From Allobaculum fili (GTDB taxonomy: Bacteria > Bacillota_I > Bacilli_A > Erysipelotrichales > Erysipelotrichaceae): a DNA stretch of 32,000 nucleotides. Below are positions 10,654 to 23,276 of the stretch, piece by piece. The stretch's first letter is position 1. Every line of letters starts with the position of its first letter. The stretch is taken from positions 1 to 32,000 of the forward strand of contig NZ_JAHDSX010000027.1 in assembly GCF_020969955.1 (NCBI RefSeq). Direction: 5' to 3'. The position numbers and the translations under genes were made by a program. The notes beneath the pieces were generated by a model that was not told the DNA's origin, searched no databases, and worked only from the letters and a program-made list of their open reading frames with translations.

Positions 10654-10680
10654 TTAGCAAGCTTAGAGATTAAGTGCTAA
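10654..10680 (+). promoter_or_regulatory. CIRCE-like inverted repeat (HrcA operator)
   Basis: TTAGCAAGC-N9-AAGTGCTAA compared with the consensus TTAGCACTC-N9-GAGTGCTAA: 7/9 and 8/9 matches with exact 9-nt spacing. It lies between the -10 and the htpG RBS. Confidence 0.65.
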
Positions 10681-10717
10681 TTCGCGTATACGCGCGAGTT
10701 CGATTATGGAGGTCTGA

Positions 10718-12721
10718 ATGTCTGAACGAAAAGAATTCAAGGCGGAATCGCGCCGCCTGCTTGATCTGATGATCAATTCCATTTACACGCACAAGGAAAT
10801 CTTTCTGCGTGAGCTGATTTCGAATGCGTCCGATGCACTCGATAAATACTATCTGGATTCGCTGAAAAACCATAAGATTCCAGAAAAACTGGCGATCCGC
10901 ATCGATTTTGATGAAAACGCAAGAATGCTCACGATTTCCGATAACGGAATCGGCATGACCAAAGAAGAACTCGAAGACAATCTGGGTACCATCGCTAAAT
11001 CCGGCTCGCTTGCCTTCAAGGAAGAGCTCAAGAAGGAAAAGGAAGCCGGTGAAAACCCGGAAGCCAGCAGTGACTCCGAAGCGGCAGCCAATTCCGATGT
11101 CGACATCATCGGTCAGTTTGGCGTCGGCTTCTATTCCGCATTCATGGTCGCGTCCAAAGTCACCGTCGTTTCGAAGGCGCTCGGCAGCGATCAGGCCTGG
11201 AAGTGGGAATCCGATGGAACCGACGGCTATACGATTGAAGAAGCCGAACGGGACGATCATGGTACAACCATCACCCTGCTTCTGAAAGAAGATGACGAAA
11301 ACGAGAAATACTCCGAATATCTGAATTCCTGGAAACTGGAGATGCTCGTTAAGAAATATTCCGACTATATCCGCTATCCAATTGAAATGGATATCACGAC
11401 GCAGAAACCGGTAAAACCGGATGAAGAAGCGAAGGAAGCGGAAGAGCTGGCAGAACCGAAATTCGAAACGGTTACCGAGACACGCACCCTGAACTCCATG
11501 ATTCCGCTCTGGAAAAAACAGAAATCGGAAATCACGCAGGAAGAATTCGATCAGTTCTATCAGGATCATTTCAACAACTACACCAAACCGCTCGATACGA
11601 TCTTCTTCAATATTGACGGTTCGATTTCCTTTACCGCGCTGCTGTACGTACCGTCCAAGCGTCCGGAAAACTTCTACTCCAGCACTTTTAAACCGGGTCT
11701 GGAACTGTATTCGCGCGGCGTACTGATTGAAAGCCACTGCGAGAGCCTGCTCCCGGATTACCTGCGCTTCATGCAGGGTCTGGTCGATTCGCAGGATCTG
11801 TCGCTGAACATTTCGCGTGAAATGCTTCAGCACGATCATCAGCTGCGCTTCATCCGCAAGCAGACCGAACGTAAAGTTCTTTCCGCTCTGGCAAGCATGC
11901 AGGAGAAGAAACCGGAAGACTATCTGAGCTTCTGGAAAAACTTCGGAATCAGCCTGAAGATCGGCATTTACAATTCGCAGGGCGCTGACACCAGCAAGCT
12001 GGAAAACCTGCTCATGTATCCGACCAGCGATGACGGCAAGTACAAATCGCTCAAGGAATTTGTCGCTTCCATGCCGGAAGAAGATAAGGACATTTACTAT
12101 CTGTCTGGAACGAACATCGATACGCTGAACAAGCTGCCGGCAGCGGCCAAGCTGAAAGCCAAAGGCTATCCGGTTCTGTATCTGACCGATGAAGTCGATG
12201 AGTTCATCATCCAGATGATCAGCCAGTACGACGGCCACAGCTTCAAGAACGCCGCTCAGGGCGATCTCGATCTCGATACCGAAGAAGAAAAAGAAGCTCT
12301 GAAGACTCAGAACGAAGAAAACAAGGACCTGCTGACGTACATGAAGGACGTACTGCCTGAAGTCAGCGAAGTCCGTCTGTCCAACCGTCTGGTCGATGAT
12401 CCGGTTATGCTCGTTGCCGGCGACGGCCTCTCCTTTGAAATGGAGCACATCTTTGATGTCTTTGCCAAACAGGCTGGCGAAGACACTAACCCGGGTCTGC
12501 AGGCTTCCCGTATTCTGGAAATCAATCCGAACAACCCGATCTGGAACGTCCTGCGTACAGAGTATGTAACCGATAAGGACAAGGTTAAGGAAATCGCGCA
12601 GATCCTCTACGATCAGGCGTGCCTGATTCAGGGCTTTGCCATTAAGGATCCAGTCGAATACTCCCGCAAGGTCGCTTCGCTGCTGTCGACAATGGCGACT
12701 GCCGATGCGAAAAAGGACTAA
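10718..12721 (+). CDS. htpG: Molecular chaperone HtpG (Hsp90 family)
   Basis: The 667-aa translation starts with the Hsp90 signature (FKAESRRLLDLMINSIYTHKEIFLRELISNASDALDK) and contains GQFGVGFYSAFMVA. GGAGG lies 5 nt before the ATG. Confidence 0.95.
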   Translation: MSERKEFKAESRRLLDLMINSIYTHKEIFLRELISNASDALDKYYLDSLKNHKIPEKLAIRIDFDENARMLTISDNGIGMTKEELEDNLGTIAKSGSLAFKEELKKEKEAGENPEASSDSEAAANSDVDIIGQFGVGFYSAFMVASKVTVVSKALGSDQAWKWESDGTDGYTIEEAERDDHGTTITLLLKEDDENEKYSEYLNSWKLEMLVKKYSDYIRYPIEMDITTQKPVKPDEEAKEAEELAEPKFETVTETRTLNSMIPLWKKQKSEITQEEFDQFYQDHFNNYTKPLDTIFFNIDGSISFTALLYVPSKRPENFYSSTFKPGLELYSRGVLIESHCESLLPDYLRFMQGLVDSQDLSLNISREMLQHDHQLRFIRKQTERKVLSALASMQEKKPEDYLSFWKNFGISLKIGIYNSQGADTSKLENLLMYPTSDDGKYKSLKEFVASMPEEDKDIYYLSGTNIDTLNKLPAAAKLKAKGYPVLYLTDEVDEFIIQMISQYDGHSFKNAAQGDLDLDTEEEKEALKTQNEENKDLLTYMKDVLPEVSEVRLSNRLVDDPVMLVAGDGLSFEMEHIFDVFAKQAGEDTNPGLQASRILEINPNNPIWNVLRTEYVTDKDKVKEIAQILYDQACLIQGFAIKDPVEYSRKVASLLSTMATADAKKD

Positions 12722-12829
12722 AGGGCTGAATTGAGAATTCGATGATTCTCGTTTAACCAGACAACCCAGTTTCGTCTTTGAATCCTGATTTAAAAAATCC
12801 AGCATCATCAAAACCGATTTGAATCTCTG

Positions 12830-12875: not shown

Positions 12876-13172
12876 ATATGGCAATTTTTGCCGCGCCTTT
12901 TGCTGCCTTCCAGGCCGCTTCCAGACGATCGGAATGGCTTCGTCTTTTTGAACAGAACCCCGTTTTTATATCCGTGTCATTCTGGAGTATGGATCAGAGC
13001 AGGAAAAAGCAGAAAAATGTATACTTTCAAAGGCCGCACCTTCTTGGAAAGGTTCGTTCGCATTTTGTATTTCTCTGTCCCAGAAATCGGATAGGAACGC
13101 TGGCAATACTGGTTTCCCCGTCGATCCAGCCAGTGCAGGCGGCCTGCCCAGGAAAAGAAGGATTGATTAAAC

Positions 13173-13850
13173 ATGAATCAGAAACAACCTAAACAGGCAC
13201 AGGAAACCTTCAGCTCGAAAAAGTTCAAGCTGATGATTTACATGACCGCGCTGAGTGCCGGCGCCCTGCTGATCTCCAATCTGGCAGCGGTAAAGCTCTG
13301 GAATATGGGCGGAATCGCCGTCGATGGCGGTCTCGTTCTCTTCCCGCTGACGTATATACTCAGCGACCTGATTGTAGAACTGTACGGAAAAGACCGTTCC
13401 CGCAGCGTAATCTATGCAGGCTTTCTCGTCAACGTGATTGCGGCACTCGTCTTTTATGTCGTAATCGCACTGCCGCCGTATCCCGGCTGGGATATGCAGG
13501 AAGCGTATGCGATGGTGCTTGGTTTTTCGCCCCGCATTATTCTGGGAAGTCTTAGCGGCTATCTGACCAGCAGTCTTCTCAACAACTATCTCTTCGAAAA
13601 AATGCGCGCGTCCTCCGGAATCTTTGCCCGAAGCTTTATCGCGCGTGCGCTGACCTCTTCGGTTTTTGCGCATATTCTCGATACGATCGTATTCGAAACG
13701 ATCGCTTTTCTCGGCGTTCTCTCCTTCCAGGAATTTCTGATGCAGGCTCTGTTTGCCTATATTCTCGGAATGGGACTGGAGTTCGTTCTCTCGCCCGTCG
13801 AAATCGCCATTGAAAAAGCGCTGAAAAAATGGCTGAATGAAAAGCAGTAA
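13173..13850 (+). CDS. yhhQ: Queuosine precursor transporter (YhhQ/DUF165, VUT family)
   Basis: 225-aa polytopic membrane protein. NLAAVKLW...G..VDGGLVLFPLTYILSDLIVELYG fits the YhhQ family. GAAGGA lies ~10 nt before the ATG. Confidence 0.8.
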   Translation: MNQKQPKQAQETFSSKKFKLMIYMTALSAGALLISNLAAVKLWNMGGIAVDGGLVLFPLTYILSDLIVELYGKDRSRSVIYAGFLVNVIAALVFYVVIALPPYPGWDMQEAYAMVLGFSPRIILGSLSGYLTSSLLNNYLFEKMRASSGIFARSFIARALTSSVFAHILDTIVFETIAFLGVLSFQEFLMQALFAYILGMGLEFVLSPVEIAIEKALKKWLNEKQ

Positions 13851-14036
13851 ACCGTTCGAAAACGTACCGGAAAATTCGCATCTCCGATCGAAACAAGAGA
13901 CGAAGCCCTTCTTCCAAAACGCATGAACCGGATGGAAACATCGAGACTTTCGTCCCAAGCAAGGCTTTAAACGAAAAAAACAGTCCAGAAGATGCAGTCT
14001 TTCTGGACGTATCGTGAATACACAGAAAGGCAGGTT

Positions 14037-15350
14037 ATGAATATGGATCAGACATCCGTTTCTTCTGCAGAAGACAGAATGGAAACAAAAGATACGACCC
14101 AGCAAAGCTTTCCCAATCGCTTTTCCTTTGAAATCCTGGAGAGAATTCCAGGCCATCTGGGTCGCGCAGGAATTATTCACACGCCGCACGGGGATATTCA
14201 TACACCTGCATTCATGTGTGTTGGAACCCATGGGGAAGTTCGTTACGTCAGCATGGAGCAGCTGAAGGAAATCTGCGCGCAGGCGATGCTCTCCAACGGC
14301 TACCATCTGCGCGGCCGTTCGCAGGAAATCGCAGATGCCGGCGGTCTGGCGAAGTGGTCCGGCTGGAACAGTCCGACGCTGACGGACTCCGGCGGCTTTC
14401 AGGTCATGTCGCTTGGAAGCGGCATCGGCAAAGTCGTCAGCATGGACCGGGAAAAGGAAGTCGTCAACGCGCCGAAAAAGGAGCGTCTGGCTATTGTCAT
14501 GGAAGACGGCATTCAGTTCCACGATCCATTCACCGATCAGGATGACTTTATCGGTCCGAAAGAATCCATGGAAATTCAGTGCCGGATCGGTGCGGACATT
14601 CATATGGCGTTTGATGAACTGACGTCTCTGGCCGATACGTATGAATACAATAAGGAAGCGCTGGAGCGTACGGAACGCTGGGCGCAGATTTCTCTCGATG
14701 TCCATAAGCAGCACCGCGACGATCTCGGCTATCGCCAGTCGCTTTACGGCGTACTGCAGGGCGGTCGCTGGGAAGATTTGCGCCGCTCGACCGCGAAAAA
14801 GCTTGGTCAGATGGACTTCGATGGATATGGCCTTGGCGGCGCGTTTCTCAAGAGCGATCTTGGAGAAATTCTGAAATGGTGCAACGAAGAACTGCCGGAA
14901 GGTAAGCCTCGCCATCTGCTTGGCCTATCCCGGCCGGATGACATTCTCATCGGTTCGGAAAACGGAGCCGACACCTTTGACTGTGTCGCCCCCACCCGCG
15001 AAGCGCGTCATGGCCGCCTGTATACGAAGTACGGCTACATCAATATCGAAAAGTACGCAGGAAGTCTCGACGTCATCGATGAACACTGCGACTGCCCGGT
15101 ATGCCAGGCCGGCTATACCCGTGATGAACTGCGCGCGCTTCTCAAAAGTCAGGATCCAGAAGACCGGGAGAAGTACTTCACACTGGCCAGCATCCATAAC
15201 CTGCGTTTTACGATCCGCCTGACGGAAGAAATTCGACAGGCTATTCTGGACGGCCGCTTTGAAGAATACAAGCAGCAGTTCATGAAAGACTATTACGGCT
15301 TCTCGCCAAAAGGCGCAGCCAACGAGAAGAAAAATACGAATAAACAATAA
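14037..15350 (+). CDS. tgt: tRNA-guanine transglycosylase (queuine tRNA-ribosyltransferase), divergent
   Basis: ORF 13992..15350; the ATG at 14037 follows GAAAGG. Conserved Tgt elements are visible: HTPAFM.VGT, LTDSGGFQV, GADIHMAFDE, VLQGG, GADTFDCVAPTR, and the Zn site CDCPVC...H. There are extra N-terminal residues and an insertion after DSGGFQ. Confidence 0.85.
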   Translation: MNMDQTSVSSAEDRMETKDTTQQSFPNRFSFEILERIPGHLGRAGIIHTPHGDIHTPAFMCVGTHGEVRYVSMEQLKEICAQAMLSNGYHLRGRSQEIADAGGLAKWSGWNSPTLTDSGGFQVMSLGSGIGKVVSMDREKEVVNAPKKERLAIVMEDGIQFHDPFTDQDDFIGPKESMEIQCRIGADIHMAFDELTSLADTYEYNKEALERTERWAQISLDVHKQHRDDLGYRQSLYGVLQGGRWEDLRRSTAKKLGQMDFDGYGLGGAFLKSDLGEILKWCNEELPEGKPRHLLGLSRPDDILIGSENGADTFDCVAPTREARHGRLYTKYGYINIEKYAGSLDVIDEHCDCPVCQAGYTRDELRALLKSQDPEDREKYFTLASIHNLRFTIRLTEEIRQAILDGRFEEYKQQFMKDYYGFSPKGAANEKKNTNKQ

Positions 15351-15409
15351 ATTCAGAATCCGGTAAACACTTTGCAGACGGTGAACCGGAATACGAACAG
15401 AAATGATTT

Positions 15410-15478
15410 ACGAGCAGAACGTACCGTCCAATTCGTCCGTTGCGCGGATTACTAAGGGCACAGTTCTGCTCGTTTTTT
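15410..15478 (+). terminator. Intrinsic terminator after tgt (long-loop hairpin)
   Basis: ACGAGCAGAAC (15410-15420) pairs with GTTCTGCTCGT (15463-15473), followed by TTTTTT. The loop is unusually long (~42 nt). Confidence 0.55.
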
Positions 15479-15801
15479 CATGTCTTACAGAAACGGGGAA
15501 AGTACAGAAAATGTGTACGTATTGCTCCGTTTTAATACAGACAAATATGGTATACGACTAGATTTTTAAATAAAACAGAGGATTGAAAAAGTAACAGAAA
15601 ATGAAACAAAACTGTAATTAAAAAATACAGGGAAAAACGACATTTTCATGTTGATTTTCCCCACTTTGGGAAAGTGGTTCCATATAGCTCCTACACTGAA
15701 AACAGAAAGGTGCAGGTTCGAGTCAGCTGGTCAGATCGGGCAGTCTGATCATTCGGGTCATTCTCGAACTTCGCACATTTGCTTTGCACGAAGGAGTATG
15801 T

Positions 15802-18243
15802 ATGAAAACAAAGCAATCAATGAAGAAGCTGCTGTCGCTGGCTTTATGCCTGAGCGCGCCGGTTTCGATGATGATCTCCATGCCGCAGACCGTTCTGGCA
15901 CAGGAAGCGACGACCGCGCCGCAGGAACTGCCAGATGTCTCGGATAAGAAAGAAAATGGAACCTGGGGAACAGTAAAATACTATCTTCTGGATGACGGAA
16001 CCCTGTATTTTGGACCTGGTCAGACAGCCACCACCCCAAAGAAATTTTATCTGGCAAGCTCTGTTACACGCATCGTCTGCCATCCCGATTTTGATTCCAG
16101 TCCGCTGACTTCCATGTATGAGATGTTTTATAACTATACAAAACTTGAAGACATTTCCGGACTGGCAGAATGGGATATCAGTAATGTAACTACCATGTAC
16201 GGTGCTTTTGCGAATACAAAAATTAAAAATACCGATGCGCTTTCCTCCTGGGAATCTTCTAAACTAGGGGGACTGAACAGTACGTTTTCCGGCTGTACGG
16301 AACTCACCGATTTAAGCGGACTGGCTAATCTTGGAAAAAGCGGCTCCATTCGCGACATGAACGGCGCTTTCCTTGGCTGCACAAGTCTGGAATCTCTGCA
16401 TGGACTGGAAGACTGGTTTTCCGCGGAAGAATCCAGTCTGGATTCCATGTCCTCAACGTTTGAAGGGTGCACGAAGCTGAGCGATGTATCTGCTCTGTCC
16501 GGATGGAACACCATGAACGCGACCAACCTCTGCCAGACGTTTAACAGCTGTCCGATTTCCGATCTTTCGGTCTTTTCCAACTGGAACGTTTCGAAAGTCA
16601 GCGGCTTTGCGGGAACGTTTACCGGAAATACTGCTCTTACATCCCTGAAGGGACTGGAAAACTGGAATACAGCCAGCGCCAGTTCCTATGCGCAGATGTT
16701 TGAAAACTGCACAAATCTGAAAGATGCGAATGCGATGAGCCACTGGAAAACCGAAAAATGGTTCAGTGCGGACAATATTCTAAACAATACTGCTGTCACT
16801 CATCTGGATTTATCGGGCTGGAATACCGCACAGATGTTTTTCAGTGATACATCGAGTTATTTGTTCTCCAATCCGCTTACCGCAATCCGACTTTCTGCAG
16901 ATTACCTGAGCATGATCCGCCCGAATAAGCAGGCGCTTGTCAAATCGAAAAACAGCGACGCCTACGGGGATTCCTGGGTCAGCCAGAACCTGCACGGACC
17001 GTATACGTCCGCAGAACTGACTGATGGAACAGTTACATGGACCGAAGATATGGATGGCTGGTGGGGACGAGCCAAAACGGCGACTCTCGTCGACGAAGCG
17101 CATGGTTTGACCAAAACGATTTCTCTTCCCGCCGATCTGGAAGTCAGCCTTCCGCTTGGAACGGGCGCCTTTGACGGGAGCCCATTCCATGCCAGAGTCA
17201 TCGGGTGGAAAAAAGCCAATAGTGAAGAAACCATCACGAAATATACAGCTGGACTGAGCGAAGAAAATATTGAACTCAACCCGGTATGGGAATTCGAGCT
17301 GCATGCGAACACCTGGACGTTTGATGCCAACGGCGGTACTGGAACGATGGATTCCATTGAGGTGAGCGTACCTTCGGATACGTCCGCTCGCGTTCCAGAC
17401 TGCTCGTTTACCCGCGAAGGCTACACGTTTACCGGCTGGAATACAAAAGCCGACGGCAGCGGTGATAATATCGCGGTTGGCGATACGATTGACGTGGATT
17501 ACTCCATTGACCAGTTCACCGTATACGCACAATGGAAGAAAATTCCTTCGCATCAGGTTGCCTTTGAAGCCAATGGCGGCACAGGCGATATGGAGACGCT
17601 GATCTGGAATGGTGAAGAAGATCACGCTTTGCCAAAAAATGGCTTTACCCGAACGGATTATGAATTCACGGGCTGGAATACGAAAGCTGACGGTACGGGT
17701 ATTACCTACGCGGATGAAGCGCAGCTGAGCGGCGGTGAAGAAGACTCTGAACTTACGTTATATGCTCAATGGAAAAAGATACCGTCTCATATGGTAACCT
17801 TCGCTGCAAATGGCGGAACCGGCACTATGGAACCTCTGCTCTGGAAAGGAGAAGAGGGAAATAAACTGCCCAAAAATACCTTTACCCGATTCGACTGGAT
17901 CTTTACCGGCTGGAATACAAAGGCCGATGGTACTGGTACCGCTTATGCCGATGAAGCCCAGCTGACCGGCGGCGAAGACGATACGGAAATCACGCTGTAT
18001 GCCCAATGGAAGGCTGTCCTGCATTACGATCTTCTCGATCAGGCGATTGAAAAAGGCGAGTCAATCGCTTCGAAATCGTTCAAATCAAATCAGAACGAGA
18101 CACTCAATGCGGCGATTGCAGAAGCAAAAACGGTTCGAACACAAAGTGAATCGCAGATCGAGATCGACCAAGCCGCCAGAACGCTCAATCAGGTACTTCT
18201 GTCTCTTCGCCTGACCACGGATACAGCACTGCCGAGTCTATAG
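15802..18243 (+). CDS. Secreted BspA-type leucine-rich-repeat surface protein with three InlB-B (Listeria-Bacteroides) repeats and a C-terminal helical (FIVAR-like) module
   Basis: The ATG at 15802 follows AAGGAG. The signal peptide is MKTKQSMKKLLSLALCLSAPVSMMISMPQTVLA/QE. There are about ten ~22-25-aa repeats of the W(D/N)(V/T)S.V......F..C..L type. Three repeats follow of the type F.ANGGTG.M......LP.N.FTR.GY.FTGWNTKADGTG..Y...A......D..LYAQWK. No LPXTG motif or C-terminal TM helix was seen. Confidence 0.85.
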   Translation: MKTKQSMKKLLSLALCLSAPVSMMISMPQTVLAQEATTAPQELPDVSDKKENGTWGTVKYYLLDDGTLYFGPGQTATTPKKFYLASSVTRIVCHPDFDSSPLTSMYEMFYNYTKLEDISGLAEWDISNVTTMYGAFANTKIKNTDALSSWESSKLGGLNSTFSGCTELTDLSGLANLGKSGSIRDMNGAFLGCTSLESLHGLEDWFSAEESSLDSMSSTFEGCTKLSDVSALSGWNTMNATNLCQTFNSCPISDLSVFSNWNVSKVSGFAGTFTGNTALTSLKGLENWNTASASSYAQMFENCTNLKDANAMSHWKTEKWFSADNILNNTAVTHLDLSGWNTAQMFFSDTSSYLFSNPLTAIRLSADYLSMIRPNKQALVKSKNSDAYGDSWVSQNLHGPYTSAELTDGTVTWTEDMDGWWGRAKTATLVDEAHGLTKTISLPADLEVSLPLGTGAFDGSPFHARVIGWKKANSEETITKYTAGLSEENIELNPVWEFELHANTWTFDANGGTGTMDSIEVSVPSDTSARVPDCSFTREGYTFTGWNTKADGSGDNIAVGDTIDVDYSIDQFTVYAQWKKIPSHQVAFEANGGTGDMETLIWNGEEDHALPKNGFTRTDYEFTGWNTKADGTGITYADEAQLSGGEEDSELTLYAQWKKIPSHMVTFAANGGTGTMEPLLWKGEEGNKLPKNTFTRFDWIFTGWNTKADGTGTAYADEAQLTGGEDDTEITLYAQWKAVLHYDLLDQAIEKGESIASKSFKSNQNETLNAAIAEAKTVRTQSESQIEIDQAARTLNQVLLSLRLTTDTALPSL
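17311..18012 (+). repeat. Three tandem ~237-bp coding repeats (InlB B-repeat units) inside the surface-protein gene
   Basis: Units run at about 17311-17523, 17524-17760 and 17761-17997, plus the closing YAQWK. Units 2 and 3 are ~75% identical in protein by eye but differ at many synonymous positions. Confidence 0.8.
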
Positions 18244-18333
18244 AGCGCCATTTCCGCTTGGAAATGATAGAGGAGATCCGTTTTTGAGAAAACGGAATCC
18301 GACCGATCCTAAACAAACGGCACCAAAATGAAA

Positions 18334-18390
18334 AGTCCGCTAGTGTCGGAAAACCAGATTTGGCTCCGACCTGGCGGACTGTTTGTTTGT
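18334..18390 (+). terminator. Intrinsic terminator of the surface-protein gene
   Basis: The outer stem AGTCCGC (18334-18340) / GCGGACT (18374-18380) encloses an inner GTCGGA/TCCGAC stem. It is followed by GTTTGTTTGT. Confidence 0.6.
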
Positions 18391-18410
18391 ACGAGGATTG
18401 AGCAGGGAAA

Positions 18411-18458
18411 GAAAAAACAGGCTGCGATCATTCCTTTCTCAGGAAGAAACTGCTGTTT
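18411..18458 (-). terminator. Intrinsic terminator of the TIR-domain gene
   Basis: On the minus strand, an AAACAGC...GCCTGTTT stem with an inner TTCCT/AGGAA hairpin is followed by TTTTTTC (plus-strand A-run at 18412-18417). Confidence 0.55.
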
Positions 18459-18482
18459 AGCAAAAGAACCGCGTTACCTGTT

Positions 18483-19544
18483 TTACTCAAACGAGGAGGC
18501 TATGTCCTCGGATTGTTCACGTTCTTTCAAAAAGTCTGCCAGAGGGGTGCACAGGTGATTCCACATATAATTGAACTCAGTGCGATATGCCTGGTACATT
18601 TCCCAGTCTTTTTTTGCTCCATCGAAAGTAAATGATTCCTGATTATCACTTGAACCATCACCATAGCGGTAGTTTTTTAAAGAAAGCGAACCCGTTCCGT
18701 CTTTTCGATGGACGAGGTAGGTTCGATGTAAAATCGGCAGCGAACATACGCGTACCTCTAGCAGTTCTGGGTAATTGGCGCTTCGTTCTCTCCAGATATT
18801 GAAGTTGTTTTCTAAAGGGATGTACCACTTCATTTGTTTACGCATATGCTGAACGATCTCTTCCGAGGTGTATTCAGACTGAATGATGACTCGTACCGGT
18901 ATGTGATGCTCCATTAGCTTCTGCAGAATGTCGATCTTTTCATTATTTAGATACCAGTAAGAACCGACATGAAAGGCCATATCTACACCGCTGACGTTTT
19001 GAGAGGAATCCAGAGAATACTTAAAAAAATCAGCAACATTTTGGCCAATGTTTAATCCTAGAGAAATTGTTCCAGGAGCTAGAAGGAGAAAGCTTACCAG
19101 ACGATCAACAGAGGCTTCGAAATATTCTGTTGAAAGGATAACTGAATTTAGCTGTTCAAGAATTTGCAGAGAAGGAGGTAATAGCGAGGACAGCTGACTG
19201 GACCAGACAAAACCGTGCAGCTGAACGGGTATAATAGTCTTCTTCAATTCCATAGCGGCTTCAATTTCCTGTCGGACCCAGTCTTCTTCATGAACGCAGC
19301 GATCGAGAGCGGCAGGGGAAAGAATCAGAATAAAATTTTCACAGTTCGCAATAGCATTCTTGATTCGATTGTTTATGTTTCCTGCTTTGGACTCTTCCAG
19401 ATCGAGAAAACAGGAAATTCCCAGAGATTCGAGCTGATCGCGAATCATTTTGGCCGCAAAAAAACCGTCAGCGCGGCGATAGCTGATAAAACAGTCCACA
19501 GGACTGGATCCGTCATGCAGCGGATCGGGCTGGAAATGGTTCAT
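18483..19544 (-). CDS. TIR domain-containing protein with uncharacterised ~200-aa C-terminal domain
   Basis: ORF 18483..19556. The ATG at 19544 is preferred because GGAGGTG (19554-19560) lies upstream. TIR hallmarks are DCFISYRRADG, FLDLEES..G, ILILSPAAL and EDWVRQEIEAAM (Glu at the usual catalytic position). The C-terminal half has no motif I can assign with certainty. GC is lower than in flanking genes (33-47% in the four 60-nt lines I counted). Confidence 0.8.
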   Translation of the reverse strand: MNHFQPDPLHDGSSPVDCFISYRRADGFFAAKMIRDQLESLGISCFLDLEESKAGNINNRIKNAIANCENFILILSPAALDRCVHEEDWVRQEIEAAMELKKTIIPVQLHGFVWSSQLSSLLPPSLQILEQLNSVILSTEYFEASVDRLVSFLLLAPGTISLGLNIGQNVADFFKYSLDSSQNVSGVDMAFHVGSYWYLNNEKIDILQKLMEHHIPVRVIIQSEYTSEEIVQHMRKQMKWYIPLENNFNIWRERSANYPELLEVRVCSLPILHRTYLVHRKDGTGSLSLKNYRYGDGSSDNQESFTFDGAKKDWEMYQAYRTEFNYMWNHLCTPLADFLKEREQSEDIASSFE

Positions 19545-19765
19545 AAGGATCTGCACCTCCGTTTCTTTTTCTCGGGTCCAGAAAGAAGCTTCTAAATCAG
19601 GGAATGATGTCTTCTTCCTTGGGATTGATAACTGTTTTCAATGCTCGTTGTATTGGAATGTTTCTGTTCATTCAGAATAGGCAAAGAAGGACAGACGTGC
19701 AATATCTGTTGGATTTCTTCGCATTTTCGATTGCGTTTTCCACAGATCTGTATCATTTTTCACAT

Positions 19766-19829
19766 ACAAAAATCGGCCGGTTTTCTGCAGCCGTTTCCGA
19801 AGGGAAACAGACTGCAGAAGACCGGCCGT
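19766..19829 (-). terminator. Intrinsic terminator of aspS
   Basis: The long hairpin CGGCCGGTTTTCTGCAG (19774-19790) / CTGCAGAAGACCGGCCG (19812-19828) has an inner CCGTTTCC/GGAAACAG stem. On the minus strand it is followed by ATTTTTG. Confidence 0.75.
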
Positions 19830-19883
19830 TTTGAGCTGATCGTTAATCCAGAGGATTTCTTGAAAAATTATCGTGAATCGGGA

Positions 19884-21740
<1,857 letters not shown>

Positions 21741-21923
21741 ATCAGATAACCTCCTTAAAGGGAAAAAACAAAAGGAATTTGAAAATTAAAGGAATTGGAA
21801 AAGGGAATATAGACGGCAAAACGGGAAGGGAGGCTGCGATTCAGACTTTCTATACGCATTTCGCAGGCGTTATGCCGTTTTTGGATAAGGAAATGGATTC
21901 AGGTCAGGACGGGTAGTGTCAGC

Positions 21924-23276
21924 TTAGTCCTGATGATCGTGCGCTTCGTGCTCGTCATGGTCATGATCGTGCTCATGATGATGATCGTGACCGTGCTCAT
22001 CGCCTTCTTCGAACTGACTGTCCATGAAGTCGATCAGCTCATCCGCATTCAGACTGGTCTGTTCGCGGGTCTGCGCGTTCTTAATCGTAACAGTGCGGTT
22101 TTTCGCTTCGTCTTCGCCGATCAGCAGCGTGAATTTGGCATGGGCGCGGTCTGCAGCCTTAAACTGCCCTTTGAACGATTTGCCCATGAAGTCCATGTCA
22201 GAACGGAATCCGTTGGCGCGCAGTTCGGTCAGAAGTTCAAACGCATAGCTGCGGGCTTCCGGATTGAGAACCATGACGTACGCATCCAGAGGCGGCTTTT
22301 CGCCAAGTTTAATGCCTTCCGCTTCCAGCGCGAGCAGAATGCGCTCTTCGCCAAGCGCCCAGCCGATGCCGGACATTTCCGGTCCGCCAAAATAGGGGAT
22401 CAGGTTGTCGTAGCGGCCGCCGGCAAGAAGCGTAGCCTGGGCACCCATGGAAGGCGATTCGCTGACAATTTCAAAAACAGTATGCGTGTAGTAGTCGAGA
22501 CCGCGAACCAGAGAAGGATCGACACGATACGGAATGTTCATTACATCGAGCAGATCAGTAACCGTCCTGAAGTATTCGCGGCTTTCCTCGTTGAGGTAGT
22601 CAGCCATGGACGGCGCGTTTTTCATGCAGTCCTTGTCGTGATCGACTTTGCAGTCGAGAAGACGGAGCGGATTCTGTTCATAGCGGCGCTTGCAGTCGGA
22701 ACAGAGATCATCGACATATGGTGCGAAGTATTCTTTTAAAGCGCTTCGATACGCCGAGCGGGATTCGTCATCGCCAAGGGTATTCAGCAGAATGGTAATA
22801 TGGTCAAGGCCAAGGGAACGCAGAATGGAGTAGGCGAGAACCATCGCTTCTACGTCCGAATACGGGCTCTTCAGACCAAGAGATTCGATACCGAACTGGT
22901 TGAAAATACGCAGACGGCCTTTTTGCGGACGTTCATGACGGTGCATCGGGCCGATATAATACAGCTTTACCGGAAGATCCGGCAGAGCGTACATTTTGTT
23001 TTCTACAAAGGAACGGACGACTCCTGCGGTTCCTTCCGGACGCAGAGTCAGGGACGTCGAAGAATTGGGAAGAGTAAAGGTGTACATCTCTTTGTTGACC
23101 ATGTCGCTCGAATCGTTTTCGCGCTTGAAGACATTGGTGTGTTCAAAGATCGGGGTACGAATTTCATCAAAGTTGTAAAGAAGACAGAACTGACGGAATA
23201 AAGTTTCGAGCTGCTGCCAGGAGTAGCTTGCTTCTCCGTAAATATCCTGCGTTCCTCTCGGAATTTGGTAACTCAT
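21924..23276 (-). CDS. hisS: Histidine--tRNA ligase with C-terminal His/Asp/Glu-rich tail
   Basis: The 450-aa translation shows HisRS motifs (PRGTQD, LRPEGTA, YY.GPM.R.ERPQKGR.R.F.Q.G.E, RGLDYYT..VFE, GGRYD.L). GGAGGAAAAC lies directly before the ATG. The last 28 aa are EEGDEHGHDHHHEHDHDHDEHEAHDHQD. Confidence 0.95.
   Translation of the reverse strand: MSYQIPRGTQDIYGEASYSWQQLETLFRQFCLLYNFDEIRTPIFEHTNVFKRENDSSDMVNKEMYTFTLPNSSTSLTLRPEGTAGVVRSFVENKMYALPDLPVKLYYIGPMHRHERPQKGRLRIFNQFGIESLGLKSPYSDVEAMVLAYSILRSLGLDHITILLNTLGDDESRSAYRSALKEYFAPYVDDLCSDCKRRYEQNPLRLLDCKVDHDKDCMKNAPSMADYLNEESREYFRTVTDLLDVMNIPYRVDPSLVRGLDYYTHTVFEIVSESPSMGAQATLLAGGRYDNLIPYFGGPEMSGIGWALGEERILLALEAEGIKLGEKPPLDAYVMVLNPEARSYAFELLTELRANGFRSDMDFMGKSFKGQFKAADRAHAKFTLLIGEDEAKNRTVTIKNAQTREQTSLNADELIDFMDSQFEEGDEHGHDHHHEHDHDHDEHEAHDHQD

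Follow-up and report, generated by a model that had tools for sequence, protein, structure and literature searches.

The TIR+X gene and its locus

We analysed a 32,000-nucleotide stretch of Allobaculum fili DNA (contig NZ_JAHDSX010000027.1, positions 1 to 32,000; hereafter the window) and focused on a gene lying on its minus strand between aspS and tgt, which encodes a protein of 353 amino acids (aa) with a TIR domain in its N-terminal half and, in its C-terminal half, a module that we call X. Coordinates are those of the window unless a contig is named, and residues are numbered from the ATG at 19544. Judging from sequence comparison and structure prediction, this gene (TIR+X) would encode a stand-alone, trigger-activated NAD+ hydrolase (NADase) of the abortive-infection type, in which the TIR domain is the putative effector and X a candidate sensor; we put the probability of this reading at about 0.55.

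The longest version of the open reading frame (ORF; 18483..19556) begins at a GTG located four codons upstream of the ATG and inside the Shine-Dalgarno sequence. A 99%-identical protein (P0001) is encoded on 7 metagenome contigs, for which gene callers chose the ATG corresponding to 19544. The 353-aa frame with its own ribosome-binding site, as stated in the original prediction (an earlier reading of this DNA made from its letters alone), is confirmed. The aspS terminator, a very stable hairpin followed by the U-run AUUUUUGUAU, insulates the TIR gene from aspS, again as had been proposed. On the opposite side, between TIR+X and a convergent surface-protein gene, lies a branched hairpin with a U-tract that is a probable terminator, weaker than the one of aspS; of the claim that the gene has a terminator of its own, the structure itself stands and its function is only plausible. 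The gene is likely monocistronic, as had also been claimed, and its promoter was not located. No other defence gene was found in the window by Pfam (20 ORFs) or by PADLOC (10 further ORFs), in agreement with the original prediction.

Table 1. Features of the TIR+X gene and of its locus in the 32,000-nucleotide window
Feature	Position	Strand	Basis
TIR+X coding sequence (353 aa + stop)	18483..19544	-	ORF listing; same start in 99%-identical P0001
Ribosome-binding site GGAGGTG	19554..19560	-	9 nt upstream of ATG; read from sequence
SARM1-like TIR domain, residues 12-153	19086..19511	-	Pfam TIR_2; human SARM1 TIR match
Codon of Glu93, predicted catalytic residue (WVRQE)	19266..19268	-	Pairs with the Glu of SARM1 WVHKE, E642
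X module, residues ~165-330	18555..19052	-	AlphaFold (AF2) model; Foldseek; HKD motif absent
3' branched hairpin and U-tract of TIR+X	18405..18482 (hairpin 18416-18482)	-	Free energy (dG) -20.9 kcal/mol, z = -2.35
aspS intrinsic terminator	19768..19833	-	dG -50.8 kcal/mol, z = -7.5, U-run
Species-specific accessory segment, tgt to aspS (DUF285/Flg_new surface-protein gene and TIR+X)	15351..19883	.	Nucleotide similarity, gap sizes, GC

We also looked at how the interval between aspS and tgt varies. Thirteen metagenome loci carry an aspS at 73-90% identity, which places them probably in the same genus; hisS-aspS is kept in all of them, and TIR+X and the DUF285 gene are found in none, so that the gene is neither syntenic nor universal in its clade. 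In one of these loci, 138 bp separate aspS from tgt; four have ~1.2 kb there, occupied by small ORFs unrelated to the window, and two have other genes. Overall, the gap ranges from 138 bp to 4.5 kb, which bears out the suggestion of a variable site. Nucleotide similarity between the window and its congeners ends exactly at the ends of tgt and aspS, and the GC content of the TIR gene is 43-44% against 52-56% for aspS and tgt. No att-like direct repeats were found flanking the accessory segment. All same-species contigs (99.5% identical) carry the gene, with 3-4 synonymous and 3 non-synonymous changes among copies, too few for a selection test, and no close copy of the protein was found among GTDB representative genomes. 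By these comparisons, TIR+X is an accessory gene acquired horizontally.

The second gene of the segment (15784-18243, plus strand) encodes an 819-aa DUF285/Flg_new (BspA-like) surface protein with three Flg_new repeats of 237 nt. No congeneric aspS-tgt interval contains this gene, and in one contig of the same species (L003) it is broken into two ORFs.

The N-terminal half resembles the TIR domain of human SARM1

Several searches agree on the nature of the N-terminal half. Pfam TIR_2 matches residues 19-149 with E=7.2e-17 (62.4 bits for a cut-off of 28), the Pfam TIR model also exceeds its own cut-off, and ThsB_TIR reaches 26.8 bits for a cut-off of 21.2. When PDB sequences were searched with phmmer, the TIR domain of human SARM1 was the best match (E=7.5e-25), with TIR-1 of C. 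elegans also among the best, while structurally solved bacterial TIRs (AbTIR, TIR-SAVED) gave marginal matches only. By BLASTP, the identity to the human SARM1 TIR is 36% along the entire 142-residue domain (E=1e-31). PADLOC returned as best match its SAVED_TIR model, covering only the TIR part of the protein (residues 12-100), and both NCBIfam and PADLOC gave weak ThsB/ThcB4 matches.

The TIR hallmarks quoted in the original prediction are all present, and they pair with SARM1 motif by motif: FISYRR with FISYRR, FLDLEESKAG with FIDVEKLEAG in the BB loop, and DWVRQE with DWVHKE. Residues Y22/R23/R24, G55, C83, W89 and E93 correspond to SARM1 Y568/R569/R570, G601 (BB loop), C629, W638 and E642, the SARM1 numbering being counted along the alignment from E642, the established catalytic Glu. 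In particular, W89 and E93 align with the W638 and E642 of the SARM1 WxxxE motif, meaning that the Glu of WVRQE falls at the catalytic position as had been predicted, and G55 aligns with the Gly of the SARM1 EAGKF segment, the BB-loop residue on which self-association of the TIR depends (G601). Together with D88, these three residues (G55, W89 and E93) are invariant among 14 full-length TIR+X relatives. By sequence, the N-terminal half is a SARM1-type TIR domain that retains both the catalytic Glu and the Gly of the BB loop. The same SARM1-like TIR was found with other, unrelated C-terminal domains in ~48 reference genomes.

The C-terminal half is modelled as a PLD fold lacking the HKD motif

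Residues ~165-330 gave no significant match in Pfam, NCBIfam, PADLOC or PHROGs, and a profile of X found nothing meaningful among PDB sequences; the domain stays unassigned, as originally described, and no housekeeping family was matched by the C-terminal half. A single-lobe AlphaFold model built on a 16-sequence domain alignment reached a predicted local distance difference test score (pLDDT) of 83 and a predicted template modelling score (pTM) of 0.83. Foldseek placed it with vaccinia F13, phospholipase D (PLD), phosphatidylserine synthase and the C-terminal domain of TrmBL2, an archaeal regulator (prob 0.98-1.0, TMq ~0.5). For a two-lobe model, the 28 best Foldseek matches in the PDB all belonged to the PLD superfamily, 25 of them at E<=1e-3, in the order PLD (E=3.8e-9), F13, polyphosphate kinase 1, phosphatidylserine synthase and TrmBL2; Zucchini, NgoAVII and BfiI fell just short of E<=1e-3 in this list. 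At the level of sequence profiles, PLDc_2 was hit below threshold by 3 of 16 members (best E 1.3e-3) and 5 of 130 (best E 1.5e-4), DUF5919 by 2 of 16 (E=0.16), and the window protein had no Pfam match to either. The earlier comparison with PLD-fold modules was right at the level of the fold, and membership of a DUF5919-type family is unsupported.

The catalytic motif of PLD enzymes, HxK(x)4D(x)6GSxN, is absent from the window protein, which reads H273-R-T...R280 at this place. Of 149 instances of the X domain, 55% have H at the His position and 38% have R (H or R in 93% at H273), none has K at the Lys position (0%), and neither the Asp nor the Asn position is conserved, extending to the whole family the loss of HxK(x)4D that the original prediction had noted for this protein. 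X has a near-invariant set of its own: W251 (100%), Y292 (100%), G194 (98%), Y294 (96%) and E323 (96%), followed by W328 (93%), P270 (91%), N222 (89%), W197 (87%) and H192 (73%), which gives the signature FHxGxxW ... W ... P..H/R ... YxY ... EFxYxW. Going by the order of secondary-structure elements in the model, H192, N222, H/R273 and Y292/Y294 would lie at the strand ends and in the loop that hold HKD and GSxN in PLD enzymes. As modelled, then, X is a single-lobe PLD-superfamily fold that lacks the HKD catalytic motif and carries its own near-invariant residues.

X recurs behind interchangeable front ends

When 1.84 billion representatives, clustered at 50% identity, were searched with a profile of X, 245 X proteins were found at E<=1e-3, 193 of them at E<=1e-10; they come mostly from gut and rumen Bacillota. 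Architectures were counted on the best 150 of the 245. In 34 of these 150, a SARM1-like TIR precedes X; counting this group, the N-terminal regions fall into 26 clusters. The front ends other than TIR include an HTH-like (helix-turn-helix) group (20), Trans_reg_C, an OmpR-type winged helix (7), HTH_23 (4) and DUF4145 (4), and further partners are Sel1/TPR extensions, one DUF4062 (P0137) and one SEFIR. The number of X copies varies from 1 to 5, with two tandem copies in six close and 15 more distant relatives. Among the unusual members, P0024 (1072 aa) has five tandem X, P0026 (328 aa) is X-X with no other domain and P0034 (184 aa) consists of X only. Throughout the family, X is the constant part, and the output domains in front of it are exchanged.

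When TIR+X proteins were compared with each other in 2016 pairs, conservation was higher in the TIR half than in X in 87% (mean identity 44% for TIR, 35% for X); such a pattern is that of an effector which stays conserved while the recognition or regulatory module attached to it evolves faster. The architecture is what suggests, by analogy, the label of sensor for the C-terminal half. No phage relatives of X were found in PHROGs or in the viral structure library, and the literature searched offered nothing on TIR fusions with a PLD-like sensor or on DUF5919. X is an undescribed family as far as Pfam, PADLOC, NCBIfam, PHROGs and this literature go.

Relatives lie in defence islands and on mobile elements

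Full-length relatives of the window protein (34-41% identity) are distributed patchily in Lachnospiraceae, Ruminococcus, Butyricicoccus, other Clostridia and Eggerthellaceae (Actinomycetota). Their neighbourhoods comprise ~13 TIR+X contexts; contigs of the HTH-X, DUF4145-X, DUF4062-X and wHTH-X-X (winged HTH) members are 1-5 kb long and gave no information on context. Some copies are placed between a gene for a TIR-NB-ARC-TPR protein and a cluster of RNase_T, PP2C and kinase-Card1-nuclease genes, and another adjoins a TIR-STAND NTPase and a coupling protein of a type IV secretion system (T4SS). A single viral contig carries TIR+X, where it stands beside another TIR protein. One solo chromosomal relative lies between an AraC regulator and metabolic genes and resembles the window copy in this respect. 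No constant partner gene and no second X-bearing gene was found beside TIR+X in the neighbourhoods examined. These contexts, with relatives in defence islands and on mobile elements and a one-gene arrangement that recurs in an unrelated chromosome, support the original claim of a stand-alone defence gene; being alone at two unrelated chromosomal sites and having no constant partner both point to autonomy.

The most recurrent setting is a mobile element with parA and parB. TIR+X lies directly 3' of parA-parB in five independent contexts, with stop and start codons overlapping or within ~50 nt. The element also holds DUF6017, a large protein kinase and sometimes resolvase or T4SS genes, and the slot after TIR+X is filled by a TIR-STING gene, by a gene for a P-loop-TIR protein, or is empty. 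In contigs L009, L013, L019, L020 and L163, the ~5 kb upstream of TIR+X contain the backbone of large Pkinase, DUF6017, a 53-aa ORF, parA and parB. This backbone is present in Bacillota as well as in a metagenome-assembled genome of an Eggerthellaceae (Actinomycetota), with variable cargo after parB; this slot looks like a hotspot for defence cargo on a gut mobile element that crosses phyla.

Such an association also raises the question of whether the NADase serves the element that carries it, either by post-segregational killing or by excluding rival plasmids, integrative conjugative elements or phages, the window copy then being a stranded cargo gene. The tight coupling to parA-parB in the five contexts, the DUF6017, resolvase or T4SS genes of the carrier and its passage across phyla would all fit a maintenance or competition toxin. 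Against it, no antitoxin-like small gene is consistently adjacent in the parA-parB contexts, other known defence effectors, TIR-STING for example, occupy the same slot, which is what one would expect of defence cargo, and the two solo chromosomal copies (the window and one relative) have no element genes around them. We consider such a toxin unlikely; mechanistically, it overlaps with the suicide switch discussed below.

Neighbouring TIR genes point to another way of reading the protein, namely signalling: its TIR could make a messenger of the cyclic ADP-ribose (cADPR) type that acts on an effector encoded at another place, like ThsB of Thoeris, or X could bind a nucleotide signal made by an adjoining TIR or cyclase gene. 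A second TIR gene of different architecture occurs within one or two genes in at least 6 of the ~13 TIR+X contexts, the ThsB_TIR and ThsB/ThcB4 matches described above go in the same direction, and the conserved X residues would, if the topology of the model is followed, stand where PLD enzymes bind phosphate. Against this, neither a ThsA-type gene (SIR2, SLOG, Macro) nor a cyclase was found in the window or in the neighbourhoods of homologues, the neighbouring TIR genes vary by locus and the gene is alone twice, and the TIR is far nearer to the NAD+-depleting SARM1 (E=1e-24) than to the ThsB models (E=1e-6 to 1e-7). A signalling role appears rather improbable.

Several contigs showed further details of these neighbourhoods. 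In L009 (9633-10730; also L010-L012), a TIR-STING gene (CAP12-PCTIR_TIR and prok_STING) directly follows a TIR+X gene with two lobes; since no CD-NTase or cyclase is found in the 7 kb downstream of it, it looks like an orphan CBASS effector on the parA-parB element. In L163 (10042-11061) and L019 (5102-6142), the gene after TIR+X encodes a protein of 339-346 aa with a P-loop-like N-terminus and a C-terminal TIR, without X. In L013 (11924-16761) and L020 (11025-14854), a pair formed by an HSP70-like protein (894-918 aa) and a protein of 342-376 aa lies on the opposite strand just after TIR+X, accompanied in L013 by a metallo-beta-lactamase with an Anti-Pycsar Apyc1 Pfam match; the pair may be another defence or anti-defence module. 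Finally, in L015 (8001-8966 and 16233-16553), the TIR+X copies (P0015) are truncated or frameshifted in X, with the profile match stopping at position 130, and a separate 107-aa X fragment lies beside an rve transposase; these copies look like they are decaying.

A candidate one-protein suicide switch

In defence islands, it is common for a TIR to be fused to an unknown domain. Putting the two halves of the protein and the contexts of its relatives together, TIR+X is, as far as its sequence allows, most likely a one-protein suicide switch directed against phages or mobile elements. The activity of TIR domains needs their head-to-tail clustering, as in SARM1, TIR-SAVED and TIR-STING, and the activity of SpbK needs TIR clustering too (PMC12847820). 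In the resting protein, the TIR domains would be held apart and inactive. X would recognise a cue of infection or invasion, such as a phosphate-bearing small molecule or a nucleic acid, either of them bound at the relic PLD face, or a protein of the phage or mobile element, and would then self-associate. The TIR domains brought together head-to-tail would form a composite active site between subunits, as in SARM1, SpbK, TIR-SAVED and TIR-STING, and convert NAD+ into nicotinamide and ADP-ribose (ADPR) or cADPR; the infected cell would halt growth before the invader spreads, with no partner gene being needed.

Concerning the cue, two lines of analogy lean in different directions. The invariant residues at the relic PLD site, together with HTH fusions like those of TrmB-type regulators, lean towards a small phosphate-bearing ligand or a nucleic acid; the two precedents, SpbK and Swarozyc, are each activated by a portal and so lean the other way, to a phage protein. 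A broader idea, which we hold as a tentative and rather unlikely one, is that X represents a new class of ligand-sensing module, in which a relic PLD site has been re-used as a pocket for a phosphate-bearing cue and coupled to many outputs, among them the SARM1-like TIR, NADases of the DUF4062 and SEFIR types and transcription factors of various kinds. The cue might then possibly be a nucleotide-derived immune messenger, perhaps made by the adjoining TIR genes, or the nucleic-acid end of an invader, and the role of X would be comparable to that of SAVED, CARF, SLOG or STING domains.

Several observations weigh against an active immune NADase at this locus. Around the window copy there are no genes of a defence island or mobile element, and a consensus scan of its 230-nt leader found no sigma-70 consensus promoter. 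In the protein, Ile57 replaces the BB-loop Phe (SARM1 F603), which is Phe in at least 90% of relatives, and X has Gln at N222 (89% conserved) and Asp at N296 (55% conserved); these departures could mean that activity or regulation is altered. The two-lobe model has a pTM of only 0.53 and superposes on bilobed PLDs with TM ~0.3 and a root-mean-square deviation of ~14 A; as the canonical packing of PLD lobes is not reproduced, self-association of X as a Nuc-like dimer is unsupported. Moreover, many members bear an HTH, and X could thus serve regulation or ligand binding in general, without any particular tie to immunity.

X might instead have an enzymatic activity of its own, as a divergent nuclease or phosphodiesterase of the PLD fold that relies on other residues such as H192, H273 or E323, in which case the protein would be a fusion of two effectors. 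The PLD-superfamily nucleases Nuc, BfiI, NgoAVII and Zucchini are among the fold matches, and the three residues are conserved as given above (73%, 93% as H or R, and 96%). Yet no instance has the motif Lys, Asp and Asn are not conserved, Arg takes the His position in 38% of instances, and second lobes have Arg in place of H192; in addition, many members join X to DNA-binding HTH domains, as is the case for the non-catalytic PLD-fold effector domain of TrmB-type regulators. An enzymatic X is quite improbable on these grounds. A host-directed TIR effector of the Tcp type, interfering with animal TLR (Toll-like receptor) or NAD+ signalling alongside the BspA-like surface protein, which the original prediction offered as its alternative, gained no support and is very unlikely: the bacterium is a gut Erysipelotrichaceae-like one (a 99%-identical protein fragment is labelled uncultured Allobaculum sp.), its TIR is unusually close to an animal TIR and the DUF285/Flg_new gene does adjoin it, but no signal peptide is visible, no secretion-associated gene was found, the adjacency of the surface protein is unique to the window species and occurs in no other context, and members of the family lie within defence islands and mobile elements, X being paired with bacterial HTH regulators as well.

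Comparison with known TIR systems

We asked how the suicide switch proposed here relates to systems already described. The partner genes of Thoeris, CBASS, Pycsar and short-pAgo (prokaryotic Argonaute) systems are missing, so membership of these was rejected. No ThsA effector of Thoeris, whether SIR2/SLOG, Macro or transmembrane, is present in the window or beside any relative. A TIR effector of CBASS or Pycsar was discarded for lack of a cyclase; the C-terminal domain of TIR+X is moreover of the PLD fold and not a SAVED, STING or cNMP-binding sensor, and the SAVED_TIR match does not extend into it. TIR-SAVED and TIR-STING of CBASS do combine a TIR with a sensor and act through ligand-driven oligomerisation, and X is neither SAVED nor STING.

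SpbK, encoded by ICEBs1 of Bacillus subtilis, is a single-gene TIR abortive-infection protein triggered by the phage portal YonE, with ADPR and N1-cADPR among its products, as for SARM1 (PMC11984713, PMC12847820). As proposed for TIR+X, it unites a recognition region and a TIR NADase in one protein and is activated when its TIR domains cluster, and it is carried by an integrative conjugative element; the order is reversed, the TIR of SpbK being C-terminal, and its recognition region is not a PLD fold. The SpbK chain was not among the PDB sequence matches of the window protein at E<=1. In Swarozyc, DUF4062 is a TIR-like NADase of a single protein found in defence islands, whose C-terminal auxiliary domain, an HTH/winged fold binding the portal, is required for defence (10.64898/2026.05.01.722283). 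Both proteins have an N-terminal TIR or TIR-like domain followed by an auxiliary one, and the X-family member P0137 has DUF4062 in the place of the TIR; TIR+X differs in having a PLD fold instead of the HTH/winged auxiliary domain, and a canonical TIR_2 with no DUF4062 match. TIR+X genes and the contexts of their relatives show the features of single-protein TIR abortive-infection systems, a class that is functional and not one of homology. By defining features TIR+X is not Thoeris, CBASS, Pycsar, SpbK or Swarozyc, and what sets it apart is the unannotated PLD-fold sensor candidate.

With human SARM1 (PDB 6O0R, 7NAG; an NAD+ hydrolase/cyclase), the whole TIR domain can be aligned, and catalytic and BB-loop residues are shared. 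TIR+X has no ARM or SAM domains, and regulation must come from an unrelated PLD-fold module; the equivalent of the C629-C635 loop is 3 residues shorter and misses the second Cys, and the equivalent of F603 is Ile. For X, the closest comparison is with the TrmB/TrmBL2 regulators, which have the same fold (TrmBL2 prob 0.99-1.0), and the module follows an HTH in many X members; reading the consensus against PLD lobes, the strand order and the C-terminal 'F..W' helix are kept.

The study of one-protein TIR NADases that sense infection directly, such as SpbK and Swarozyc, is still recent, and every sensor domain added to them reveals another cue monitored by bacteria. If the cue of X were identified, the whole X family (~245 clusters at 50% identity) would be annotated, together with its fusions to two further families of TIR-like NADases and to DNA-binding domains. 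The TIR half, being among the closest bacterial relatives of human SARM1, could also become a small and tractable model of SARM1-type catalysis and regulation.

Other features of the window

The genes next to the accessory segment showed some peculiarities. At the C-terminus of hisS (21927-22010, minus strand), there is a His/Asp-rich tail, EGDEHGHDHHHEHDHDHDEHEAHDHQD. Congeners can be aligned only up to residue ~422, so that the tail is variable or species-specific; it may be a metal-binding extension. The C-terminus of aspS (19887-20000, minus strand) has an extension of ~40 aa that is common to the 73-90% identical congeners, while aspartyl-tRNA synthetase relatives at ~52% identity align only to residue ~579. 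Long ORFs with no family matches run antisense to tgt, aspS and htpG (13167-14915 and 10670-12811 on the minus strand, 19641-20627 and 20820-21749 on the plus strand); they look like shadow ORFs of GC-rich genes and not like genes.

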